Positions 23,768 through 25,421 of a stretch of 64,000 nucleotides of DNA are shown piece by piece. The notes beneath the pieces were generated by a model. The model was not told the origin of the DNA. It searched no databases and saw only the letters and a list, made by a program, of their open reading frames with translations. The stretch covers positions 2,476 through 66,475 of the forward strand of contig JAFXHN010000057.1 in assembly GCA_017536365.1 (NCBI GenBank), given 5' to 3'. Position 1 is the first letter of the stretch. Each line of letters opens with the position of its first letter. This stretch comes from Bacillota bacterium. GTDB taxonomy: Bacteria; Bacillota; Clostridia; Peptostreptococcales; Anaerovoracaceae. The position numbers and the translations under genes were made by a program.

Positions 23768-23801
23768 TTGTAAATTATGTATTTTGACAGGAGGTGAAGA
23801 C

Positions 23802-25112
23802 TTGGCGAATTTTGTTGAGCAGTTTATGACTTGGCTGCTTTCTTTCGACAAAGAAGCGCTCATATTAGGAGCATCTGCCATCGGCGCCGGTCTCGCTATG
23901 ATAGCAGGTATCGGTCCTGGGGTAGGACAGGGTTATGCTGCAGGTAAAGCAGCAGAATCCACCGGAGCACATCCGGAAAACCAGAAGACAAGTCTTATGA
24001 CTATGCTGGTAGGTGCCGGTGTTGCGGAAACAACAGGTATCTTGTCACTGGTAGTAGCTCTCATCCTGATGTTTGGTAACCCAATGGTAAATCAGGAAGG
24101 TAATGCTATAGCTATTGCCGGTTCTGCAATCGGTGTAGGACTTGCAATGGTAGCCGGAGTAGGCGCAGGTATCGGCTGCGGATATGCTGCCGGTAAAGCT
24201 GCAGAAGCAACCGGTTTTGCTCCGGAAAACCAGAGAGGTATCATGATGTGTATGCTGCTGGGTTCAGCTGTTGCACAGACAACAGGTATCTTCTCACTGG
24301 TAATCGCGTTGATCTTCATGTTTGCAAACCCAATCGCTGCAGCAAGCGTTGGCGGAACACCTGAATTAGCAGTAGTTCTCGGATTATCTGCAATGGGTGC
24401 AGGTGCATGCATGATTGCCGGTCTCGGTTCCGGTGTCGGCGTGGGTTACGCAGGCGGTAAAGCGGCAGAAGCAGTTGGTATCAATCCTGAATCCACAAGT
24501 AAGTCGATCATGCTTATGTTAGTGGGCAGTGCGATGGCACAGACTTCAGCTATTTTCTCATTAGTAGTAACATTGATCCTGATGTATGCAAATCCATTCA
24601 TCGGAGTAGATGCTAATTTCTTGATTTTAGGTTGCTCGGGACTTGCAGCAGGTATCGCGATGATAGGCGGTCTCGGACCTGGTATCGGCCAAGGTTATGC
24701 GGCGGGTAAAGCTGTTGAAGGTACATCTTTCAACTTAAACGCATCAAATAAAGTAATGGTAGTAATGATCCTGGGTCAGGCTATTGCCCAGACCTCCAGT
24801 ATCTTCTCACTGGTAGTTGCTCTCATATTGATGTATGCAAATCCGCTTGTAGGACTCGATTCAAGCTTCATTATATTAGCAGCTTCCGCTCTGGGAGCAG
24901 GCTTCGCAATGATCGCAGGCGTTGGACCTGGAATAGGCCAGGGCTTCGCGGCAGGAAAAGCATCAGAAGCTACAGGTATGAGACCTAAATTACAGGGTGC
25001 AGTAATTAGAACTATGGTACTTGGTCAGGCTGTTGCACAGACAACAGGTATCTACGGTCTGGTTATAGCACTGGTACTGCTTTTCGCAAATCCATTAATC
25101 GGATTGCTTTAA
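23802..25112 (+). CDS. atpE: F0 ATP synthase c-subunit-like protein made of five fused c hairpins (10 predicted TM helices)
   Basis: Continuous ORF (open from 23784). TTG 23802 lies 7 nt after AGGAGG and is the likely start. There are five tandem copies of the c-subunit pattern G.G.G.G.G ... A-[E/Q]-T-[T/S] ... ANP. Only copy 1 has Glu (GAA 24027-24029). Confidence 0.85.
23853..25109 (+). repeat. intragenic five-fold tandem repeat (about 250 nt / 83-88 aa period), each unit one c-subunit hairpin
   Basis: Approximate units: 23853-24086, 24096-24335, 24360-24599, 24609-24848 and 24861-25109. The units are strongly diverged at synonymous positions. Confidence 0.8.
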
Positions 25113-25154
25113 TAAAAATACTTATTATGTAGTTAATTAAGGAGGACATAAAAA

Positions 25155-25421
25155 ATGGAAGCTATTACAGGCAAAGCATTAATTTTAGCATGTTCTGCTG
25201 TAGGCGCAGGCTTAGCTATGATCGCTGGTATAGGCCCTGGAATCGGTCAGGGATTCGCTGCTGGTAAAGGTGCAGAAGCTGTAGGTAAACAGCCTGAAGC
25301 ACAGGGTGACATCATTAAGACAATGCTTCTCGGAGCAGCTGTTGCTGAAACAACAGGTATCTACGGTCTGGTTGTTGCATTAATCTTATTATTTGCAAAC
25401 CCTCTCGTAGGCATGTTATAG
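25155..25421 (+). CDS. atpE: F0 ATP synthase subunit c (single hairpin)
   Basis: 88 aa. Motifs [14 protein letters not shown], loop KQPE and [13 protein letters not shown], giving Q32/V63/E65/T66/T67/Y70. Confidence 0.92.

Follow-up and report, generated by a model that had tools for sequence, protein, structure and literature searches.

A c subunit with five fused hairpins and a single ion-binding carboxylate in an F-type ATP synthase operon of the Anaerovoracaceae

The 64,000-nucleotide stretch of DNA analysed here, called the window, comes from a Bacillota bacterium of the family Anaerovoracaceae (Clostridia, Peptostreptococcales; GenBank assembly GCA_017536365.1, contig JAFXHN010000057.1, positions 2,476 to 66,475 of the forward strand) and contains a gene for an F-type ATP synthase c subunit in which five hairpins are fused and only the first one has the ion-binding carboxylate. 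The best explanation, which we consider probable, is that the product is a c1-type subunit working in a hybrid rotor together with the 88-amino-acid (aa) single-hairpin c subunit encoded behind it, that is, an enlarged (AtpE1-like) form of the c1 rotor subunit of Na+-coupled F1Fo ATPases, expanded from two to five hairpins. The single polypeptide with its ten transmembrane helices would occupy five adjacent positions of the c-ring, and copies of the 88-aa c would close the ring to give a hybrid rotor as in Acetobacterium woodii. Hairpin 1 would give side A (Glu and Gln) of one live site, hairpins 2-5 would be four consecutive positions unable to bind an ion, and the Thr-Thr-Tyr face of hairpin 5 would be side B for the following Glu-bearing subunit. 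We infer that each ring holds a single copy and is coupled to Na+, and we infer its size.

The five-hairpin gene and its product

The open reading frame (ORF) runs on the + strand from a mechanically assigned TTG at 23784 to 25112, encodes 442 aa and has zero internal stops; residue numbers of this 442-aa frame count from 23784. An original prediction, made from the letters and their ORFs, had described an uninterrupted frame between atpB and atpE, which is right, but had numbered it from 23784. Most likely the true start is the TTG at 23802, 6 nucleotides past the Shine-Dalgarno sequence GGAGGTG, and the product has 436 aa, because this start and its Shine-Dalgarno sequence are both retained in the orthologous loci L001 and L002 and gene callers agree in the homologues P0001-P0004 (L and P numbers denote loci and protein representatives of our survey). 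The linkers contain no stop codon, and a Shine-Dalgarno sequence with a start was found in no linker of the ORF, both as predicted, so internal starts releasing single hairpins were rejected. A Shine-Dalgarno-like GAGGT at 24235 stands upstream of in-frame ATGs within hairpin 2 and is probably a chance occurrence. The parts of the gene are as follows.

23790..23796 (+), Shine-Dalgarno sequence GGAGGTG, also present in L001 and L002
23802..25112 (+), atpE1-like gene that encodes the five-hairpin c subunit, probably from TTG, with 436 aa and a stop codon
23802..23837 (+), conserved N-terminal extension, a short helix in the model, with the motif [ND]FV.QF..FD common to A. woodii c1
23838..24095 (+), hairpin 1 with the sole carboxylate, Q..ETT..L; Glu82 codon GAA at 24027-24029
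24096..24353 (+), hairpin 2 with C..QTT..F and without an ion site; CAG codon of the Gln at 24276-24278; equals position 2 of four-hairpin relatives
24354..24608 (+), hairpin 3 with V..QTS..F and without an ion site; codon of the Gln at 24540-24542; equals position 3 of four-hairpin relatives
24609..24857 (+), hairpin 4 with Q..QTS..F and without an ion site; codon of the Gln at 24789-24791; a lineage-specific extra unit
24858..25109 (+), hairpin 5, without carboxylate but keeping Q..QTT..Y; Gln codon at 25038-25040; homologue of A. woodii c1 hairpin 2

Five stretches of the protein match ATP-synt_C (PF00137) in the Pfam scan (E=2.9e-60), and the AlphaFold2 model (pLDDT 89.3, pTM 0.88) consists of ten long helices and a short N-terminal helix; five domains and ten helices were the numbers expected beforehand. 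The glycine motifs of helix 1 are reproduced at aa 42-50, 125-133, 213-221, 296-304 and 379-387, and the helix-2 motif A[E/Q]T[ST] is present in every hairpin. While F-type c subunits usually have a carboxylate in helix 2 of every hairpin, here it is present in hairpin 1 only (Glu at aa 82), and hairpins 2-5 have Gln (CAG) at aa 165, 253, 336 and 419, with codons beginning at 24276, 24540, 24789 and 25038. The helix-1 residues of hairpins 1-5 are Q, C, V, Q and Q, that is, the Gln is lost to Cys in hairpin 2 and to Val in hairpin 3, and hairpins 2-4 are without the Tyr as well. The residues of a full Na+ site are nevertheless available, Q..ETT..Y in the single-hairpin subunit (the monomer), Q and E in hairpin 1, and T, T and Y in hairpin 5. 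The canonical 88-aa c subunit had been placed at 25155-25421, and its product gives one PF00137 match there.

Alignment of the five units with the monomer needs no gaps. As proteins the units share 47-60% identity with one another, and hairpins 5 and 1 are 69% and 64% identical to the monomer, respectively. In DNA the units are 56-69% identical and at third codon positions 35-50%. Since the units are diverged in DNA, third positions included, the hairpin repeats are old duplications and not a collapsed assembly. The structural part of the original prediction, an F-type c subunit with five fused hairpins, one carboxylate and an old fusion, is thus supported by the operon, the Pfam matches and the divergence of the units.

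Two parts outside the membrane helices are also conserved. In the N-terminal extension, F4, F8, W11, L12, S14 and F15 are invariant in the alignment and residues 3-13 form the helix of the model; the extension (region 23802-23855) is absent from single-hairpin c subunits and may be an assembly or positioning signal. The cytoplasmic loops are specific to each hairpin and conserved, namely HPENQK, APENQR, NPESTS, NLNASN and RPKLQG (at approximately 23940-24000, 24190-24250, 24455-24510, 24705-24760 and 24950-25010), and that of the monomer is KQPEAQG. The loop of hairpin 4 is without the usual Pro-Glu. Such distinct loops could give the gamma and epsilon subunits a fixed docking position on the ring.

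Orthologous loci were sought in a scan of one genome per species. L001, from the goat-caecum metagenome-assembled genome (MAG) Bacillota bacterium RGIG1899, is 93.6% identical in DNA over 13.6 kb, and L002, from a UBA1739 MAG, is 81% identical; both keep the ORF. For the whole gene, the ratio of nonsynonymous to synonymous substitution rates (dN/dS, Nei-Gojobori) is 0.014 in comparison with L001 and 0.08 in comparison with L002; hairpin by hairpin it is 0.05-0.13. The gene is intact in more than 13 independent assemblies, and the pattern EQQQQ (one letter per hairpin for the residue at the carboxylate position) is kept by thirteen representatives of clusters of sequences collected in ENA, JGI, Logan and NCBI, of which P0001-P0004 are 84-99% identical to the window protein and P0006-P0013 are 64% identical and 452-458 aa long. 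The single Glu and Gln159, Gln247, Gln330 and Gln413 (436-aa numbering) are among the invariant columns. The gene is real and under purifying selection, because it is intact in independent assemblies, its dN/dS is low and its predicted fold is confident. The tandem repeats, and the probable origin of the window from a metagenome assembly, might raise the suspicion that separate tandem atpE genes were fused by a sequencing or assembly error, or that the ORF is a decaying pseudogene. This is extremely improbable, for independent assemblies whose proteins are 99%, 84-87% and 64% identical carry the ORF uninterrupted, its dN/dS is as low as 0.08, the units are too different in DNA, the linkers hold neither a stop nor a Shine-Dalgarno sequence with a start, and the fold prediction is confident; the orthologues that keep the ORF and the dN/dS refute it.

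Relation to c1 and the natural series of multi-hairpin c subunits

When the protein was compared with all PDB sequences by phmmer, the best match was c1 of A. woodii (4BEM_J, E=3.8e-54), followed by the single-hairpin Na+ c subunits 1YCE, 4BEM_A and 3ZK1. Foldseek gave for 4BEM_J a template modelling (TM) score of 0.93 over its length, a root-mean-square deviation (rmsd) of 1.1 A and 54% identity, and solved chains cover at most two of the five hairpins. The N-terminus and hairpin 1 align best with hairpin 1 of c1, and hairpin 5 aligns best with hairpin 2 of c1. The comparison with A. woodii c1 in the original prediction was therefore well chosen: c1 ranks first in both the sequence and the fold comparison, and the N-terminal motif and the first and last hairpins are homologous. 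Because both ends correspond to c1, the window protein is a c1 homologue with three additional Gln hairpins between the two original ones.

The c1 subunits of A. woodii and C. aceticum are likewise encoded in F-type operons and consist of fused hairpins, the first with Q..ET and the second and last with Q..QT, Q..QT(T)..Y in the longer pattern (PMC7911925; PMC9171764). In A. woodii, moreover, a single-hairpin c gene with the Na+ motif lies immediately 3' and the N-terminus has [ND]FV.QF, and the ring contains one c1 and nine single-hairpin c, that is, 10 Na+ sites in 11 hairpins (PMC9171764). Unlike A. woodii c1, which has two hairpins (four helices, about 18 kDa) and one ion-free site, the window protein has five hairpins, ten helices and 436 aa with four ion-free sites in succession, Cys and Val for the helix-1 Gln in hairpins 2 and 3, individual loops and a TTG start, and its partner epsilon is without the C-terminal domain.

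Duplicated or fused hairpins are also known from V/A-type proteolipids (yeast Vo c/c'/c'', Enterococcus hirae NtpK, the triplicated c of Methanocaldococcus jannaschii and the 13-hairpin protein of Methanopyrus kandleri), in which hairpin fusion, often with site loss, lowers the ions per ATP (PMC2359735, PMC9171764). These proteins, however, belong to V/A-type operons and differ in sequence and fold (about 22% identity, TM 0.7, rmsd 3-4 A; TM 0.5-0.77 and 17-24% identity for V-type proteolipids in Foldseek). In addition, dead hairpins alternate with live ones in the V-type and all are live in M. kandleri, and none of these proteins has four dead hairpins consecutively. Membership of the window protein in the V/A-type proteolipids was rejected on account of its F-type operon and the weak V-type similarity. 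The engineered fused c2 to c10 of Bacillus PS3 resemble it in that F-type hairpins joined head to tail assemble and function, so the topology is allowed, but those rings are artificial and H+-coupled with every site live. The single-hairpin Na+ c subunits of Ilyobacter tartaricus (1YCE), Fusobacterium nucleatum (3ZK1) and A. woodii (c2/3) are 63-71% identical to each hairpin and the monomer and have the same Q/E/T/T/Y site residues, although they form homo-oligomeric c11 rings with one site per hairpin. The window monomer is 68-71% identical to the single-hairpin c of I. tartaricus and A. woodii.

A hidden Markov model built from the six window hairpins was used to read the hairpin number and key residues in 120 homologues, in 80 genome loci from the one-genome-per-species scan and in 148 representatives at 50% identity. 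A multi-hairpin gene is present in 78 of the 80 loci; in the other 2 every c gene encodes one hairpin. In 75 of the 78 the gene directly 3' of it encodes a single-hairpin c with Glu; the remaining 3 are contig-cut or mis-parsed. The Glu-bearing monomer gene also follows in 6/6 examined operon contexts with a multi-hairpin subunit of reduced sites, drawn from L081-L087 and L089. The patterns found are as follows.

EQ, 2 hairpins: most of the surveyed loci, in Fusibacter, Geosporobacter, Epulopiscium, Filifactor, Zhenhengia and others
EQQ and EEQ, 3 hairpins: Cellulosilyticum ruminicola, Alkalibacter mobilis and Clostridiaceae 35-E11
EQQQ, 4 hairpins: MAGs
EQQQQ, 5 hairpins: among the 80 loci only L001 and L002
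EQEEQ, 5 hairpins: L011
EQEQEQ, 6 hairpins: L003
EQ + EQ, two tandem genes: L005, L009, L070, L071 and L079

The tandem EQ + EQ genes, with the monomer after them, occur in some Clostridia and Syntrophomonadaceae and are the unfused counterpart of EQEQ proteins. Among the best 150 representatives, 49 have one hairpin, 23 two, 40 three, 27 four, 4 five and 6 six to ten.

How the fifth hairpin was acquired can be read from hairpin-by-hairpin identities. Hairpins 1, 2, 3 and 5 of the window match positions 1-4 of the syntenic four-hairpin proteins P0021/P0023 (0.84, 0.76, 0.72 and 0.80, respectively), and hairpin 4 is the unit added in the window lineage. In the P0008 lineage it was hairpin 2 that was copied to give the added unit (0.71-0.75). 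Since these identities place the added unit differently, the expansion from four to five hairpins happened twice independently, at different positions. Furthermore, a distant clade, about 35% identical and with relatives labelled Desulfobacterales, Hydrogenedentes and Spirochaetes, has EQQQ, EQQQQ and EQQQQQ proteins, whose 4- to 6-hairpin forms carry Glu in helix 1. Because EQQQQ and a monomer occur together in a clade of such low identity, the one-site five-hairpin form arose convergently in this Desulfobacterales-labelled clade. One example is L084 6635-10762 (P0094), where a 405-aa EQQQQ protein and an 82-aa monomer are encoded in an Fo-only cluster atpZ-I-a-c5-c-b-b' adjoining Mrp Na+/H+ antiporter genes; its hairpin 1 also has a helix-1 Glu, resembling a two-carboxylate motif.

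Other fused c subunits were seen beside this series. In Ca. Vampirococcus lugosii (L088 2394-4646, P0118) a 750-aa c subunit with 10 hairpins, all Glu, is encoded in an F-type operon of a, c, b, one further gene, alpha, gamma, beta and epsilon without a single-hairpin c; it is a candidate for a natural single-chain c10 ring like the engineered c10 of Bacillus PS3. P0133 (968 aa, 10 hairpins) and P0158 (524 aa, 7 hairpins) resemble it. Multi-hairpin c subunits free of carboxylate also exist (L089 7001-7843, that is P0084, and P0085, P0086, P0114 and P0117), with the patterns AAQ (three hairpins) and GQQQ (four), and one of AAQ type is encoded in an F-type operon and followed by an 83-aa monomer. 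They would be pure spacers.

The place of the protein in the ring

The ion in Na+ c-rings is bound between two neighbouring hairpins, one of which contributes Glu65 and Gln32 (side A) and the other Ser66 and the carbonyl of Val63 (side B), in the numbering of I. tartaricus (PMC2359735). Thr67 and Tyr70 would also belong to side B from the helix geometry, residues 63, 66, 67 and 70 being on one face. The co-occurrence of these residues was examined in 82 multi-hairpin proteins of the Clostridia clade. A Tyr at +5 of hairpin n with a Glu in hairpin n+1 was found in 20 pairs, and the Tyr is absent from 194/194 pairs whose next hairpin has no Glu, while the opposite pairing showed no association (45/61/71/53). 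The last hairpin nearly always retains Q..QTT..Y. It follows from this Tyr rule that the preceding hairpin supplies side B of a site, and, because the Tyr occurs only ahead of Glu hairpins, that the last hairpin is kept able to complete the site of the next Glu hairpin, either of the monomer or of hairpin 1 of another copy. On the same basis a hybrid ring is indicated, in which the five-hairpin protein would co-assemble with monomers. The dead position is Gln in 194/197 site-less hairpins of the clade, and Gln, a neutral look-alike of the ion-loaded Glu, would fit a residue that passes lipid and the stator Arg. The weak TTG start, as against the monomer's ATG behind AAGGAGG, fits a low copy number. 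This weak start, the Tyr rule and the monomer gene behind nearly every multi-hairpin gene lend support to the hybrid ring of the original prediction.

Two points weigh against this hybrid rotor. The Tyr rule has exceptions in the opposite direction, 16 Glu hairpins having Leu or Phe instead of Tyr before them. In addition, ATP synthesis was lost when the c10 fusion engineered in Bacillus PS3 carried a single E56Q (Mitome 2004, cited in PMC8809890), and given this effect four successive Gln may be harder to accommodate than assumed.

The Thr-Thr-Tyr of hairpin 5 would equally suit hairpin 1 of a second copy, so that the protein might make its own rings, two copies giving 10 hairpins and 2 sites, with the monomer making an alternative ring as in a switch between low and high gear. 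Ten-hairpin rings occur in nature, the F-type operon of Ca. Vampirococcus lugosii has its natural single-chain 10-hairpin c and no monomer gene, and engineered fused c2, c5 and c10 rings were reportedly active in Mitome's work of 2004. To our knowledge, however, A. woodii c1 makes no ring by itself. PMC8809890 confirms the activity of the fused c10 ring. The two c genes, on the other hand, adjoin in nearly every locus, and in the window no promoter or terminator above background was found between them, nor an internal terminator in the operon, which speaks for co-expression. Moreover, 2 sites per turn mean by arithmetic 0.67 Na+/ATP and more than 700 mV at 50 kJ/mol, which makes synthesis implausible and pumping wasteful. 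Separate rings of this kind are therefore unlikely.

We regard as similarly improbable a role outside the working rotor, in which the protein would be a c-derived scaffold, template or regulator, for example for ring nucleation or the setting of ring size. Four of the five hairpins have no catalytic residue, a start as weak as TTG points to low abundance, carboxylate-free relatives (AAQ, GQQQ) exist, and the A. woodii ring lacking c1 reportedly remains functional. Purifying selection, however, is strong on each hairpin, the near-invariant Gln is what is expected of a residue passing the stator and lipid, the last hairpin is linked by the Tyr rule to a functional adjacent site, and the A. woodii homologue is present in the crystallised ring (4BEM). 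The hybrid rotor thus remains the preferred explanation.

Operon, ion cost and working direction

The five-hairpin gene is encoded between atpB and atpF in a complete F-type operon, atpZ-I-B-E1-E2-F-H-A-G-D-C, with the same gene order in L081, L085 and L087. The other members of the operon are as follows.

22387..22614 (+), atpZ-like gene for a small membrane protein (PF09527), which opens the operon, in the same place in L081, L084, L085 and L087
22611..23024 (+), atpI (PF03899), c-ring assembly factor, from Pfam
23069..23767 (+), atpB, Fo subunit a (PF00119), stator Arg in ...SLAFRLFGN... read from the translation
25155..25421 (+), atpE2, single-hairpin c, 88 aa, full Na+ motif Q..ETT..Y, ATG behind AAGGAGG
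25489..26007 (+), atpF, subunit b (PF00430), from Pfam
25995..26537 (+), atpH, subunit delta (OSCP), counterpart in L081, L085 and L087 being PF00213
26559..28070 (+), atpA, F1 alpha, by synteny with L081, L085 and L087
28101..29015 (+), atpG, F1 gamma, by synteny
29031..30428 (+), atpD, F1 beta, by synteny
30440..30721 (+), atpC, epsilon, 93 aa, N-terminal beta-sandwich domain alone, PF02823 being the sole match in L081, L085 and L087
30735..30759 (+), terminator-like stem-loop and T-run at the operon end, from the sequence

Immediately 5' of the operon, 19967-22156 encodes a 729-aa protein in which a Glycos_transf_4 (MraY/WecA-like) membrane domain is fused to a UDP-GlcNAc 2-epimerase, and the fusion and its place are kept in L081, L085 and L087. 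The window is otherwise of housekeeping character (ilv/leu, aminoacyl-tRNA synthetases, spoIIE, ftsH and clpB); a 552-aa ORF at 44573-46231 has no Pfam match at E<=1e-5.

The following Na+/ATP and voltage figures are our own arithmetic and assume 11 hairpins as in A. woodii (PMC9171764), voltages being those that balance 50 kJ/mol. In a ring with one copy of the five-hairpin protein the number of sites would be that of the monomers plus 1.

One copy + 6 monomers: 7 sites, 2.33 Na+/ATP, about 220 mV
A. woodii ring: 10 sites, 3.33 Na+/ATP, about 155 mV
Two copies + 1 monomer: 3 sites, 1.0 Na+/ATP, about 520 mV, synthesis excluded

A one-copy ring would therefore use about 2.3 Na+/ATP instead of 3.3-3.7 if it has 11 hairpins. 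Its four ion-free hairpins would make up about 131 degrees of the ring, more than the 120-degree step of F1. In hydrolysis F1 would drive this ion-free arc past the stator. In synthesis no ion would cross for a whole catalytic step, and the ion gradient could not push the rotor through the arc against load, so the work would need prior elastic storage.

The epsilon subunit has 92-93 aa in the window, L001, L002, L081, L085 and L087, and 129-143 aa in about 60 other Clostridia loci; the short form consists of the N-terminal domain only and occurs also in the four-hairpin P0023 lineage. One further exception among the Clostridia loci is L051 (EEQ), with an epsilon of 90 aa. The C-terminal domain of epsilon in its extended form inhibits hydrolysis (PMC5990651). 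Because the ion-free arc exceeds the F1 step, the inhibitory domain of epsilon is lost and E56Q stops synthesis in the engineered ring, we lean slightly towards an enzyme that is mainly an ATP-driven Na+ pump. The leaning is weak, and the bias toward pumping which the original prediction derived from the lower ion/ATP ratio is not required by a site-poor rotor.

Several observations count against pumping as the main direction. ATP is synthesised both by the hybrid enzyme of A. woodii and by an A-type enzyme whose c subunit is poor in sites (PMC9171764), and at low phosphorylation potential 2.3 Na+/ATP would permit synthesis near 140-220 mV. The role of the epsilon C-terminal domain varies among species (PMC5990651). 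Its truncation is shared by one syntenic lineage, which includes a four-hairpin form, other EQQQ lineages having a full epsilon, and so it is a single event and not a repeated correlation. Genes for Rnf, Nqr, decarboxylase pumps or V-ATPase were not found in the window, which gives no physiological clue.

It is accordingly possible, though in our estimate the less favoured case, that the same hybrid rotor serves chiefly as an ATP synthase, in which fewer Na+ per ATP raise the yield per ion at low phosphorylation potential; this yield-per-ion argument has been made for A. woodii, C. aceticum and E. callanderi, and synthesis by site-poor c subunits has been shown or argued (PMC9171764, PMC7911925). 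Two-hairpin relatives are frequent in Rnf-type anaerobes, and about 30 kJ/mol at 2.3 Na+/ATP requires by arithmetic about 140 mV. Against a synthase stand the arc of about 131 degrees, longer than one F1 step, over which the work of one ATP would have to be stored elastically, the absence of the epsilon inhibitory domain in the window lineage and the halt of synthesis by one E56Q in the engineered ring.

These elements can be joined, tentatively and with considerable doubt, into one reading: an ion-free arc of ~130 degrees (or two of them, with 2 copies and a monomer giving 11 hairpins, 3 sites and 1 Na+/ATP), a docking platform of hairpin-specific loops for the foot of gamma and epsilon, and a co-evolved loss of the epsilon domain would make a dedicated high-gear Na+ pump, reached independently in the Desulfobacterales-labelled lineage. 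If this is true for the 3-site ring, it would have the lowest ion-to-ATP ratio among F-type enzymes and no synthase function would be possible.

Full-text literature searches found no paper in which an F-type c subunit exceeds two hairpins; they yielded only the V/A-type proteins and c1 of A. woodii and C. aceticum, with two hairpins, although an earlier review may have mentioned 3-hairpin forms; papers of 2021-2026 still treat c1 of A. woodii and C. aceticum as an F-type special case (PMC9171764, PMC7911925). The earlier guess of novelty holds in that no such paper was found, but the protein itself already has entries in NCBI nr, generically named 'ATP synthase F0 subunit C' (MBE6020813.1 and others), and is the extreme member of a widespread series of 2 to 6 hairpins. 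As a whole, the series from EQ to EQEQEQ is apparently undescribed.

How many ion sites a rotor offers per turn determines what ATP costs in ions, and this is the central gearing of cellular energy conversion. The textbook view of F-type enzymes is one site per hairpin, and we know of no characterised exception other than A. woodii, with one dead site in eleven. The present findings extend this exception to a graded, repeatedly evolved series with up to four successive dead sites per polypeptide, whose members are present, generically annotated, in gut, sediment and isolate genomes. They also raise the question of how a rotor crosses an ion-free arc longer than the catalytic step, which engineered rings have answered negatively. 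The A. woodii enzyme has already been produced in E. coli (PMC9171764). The natural rotors EQ, EQQ, EQQQ, EQQQQ and EQEQEQ offer reduced and defined sites for testing elastic coupling, the ion/ATP ratio and the transition from synthase to pump.

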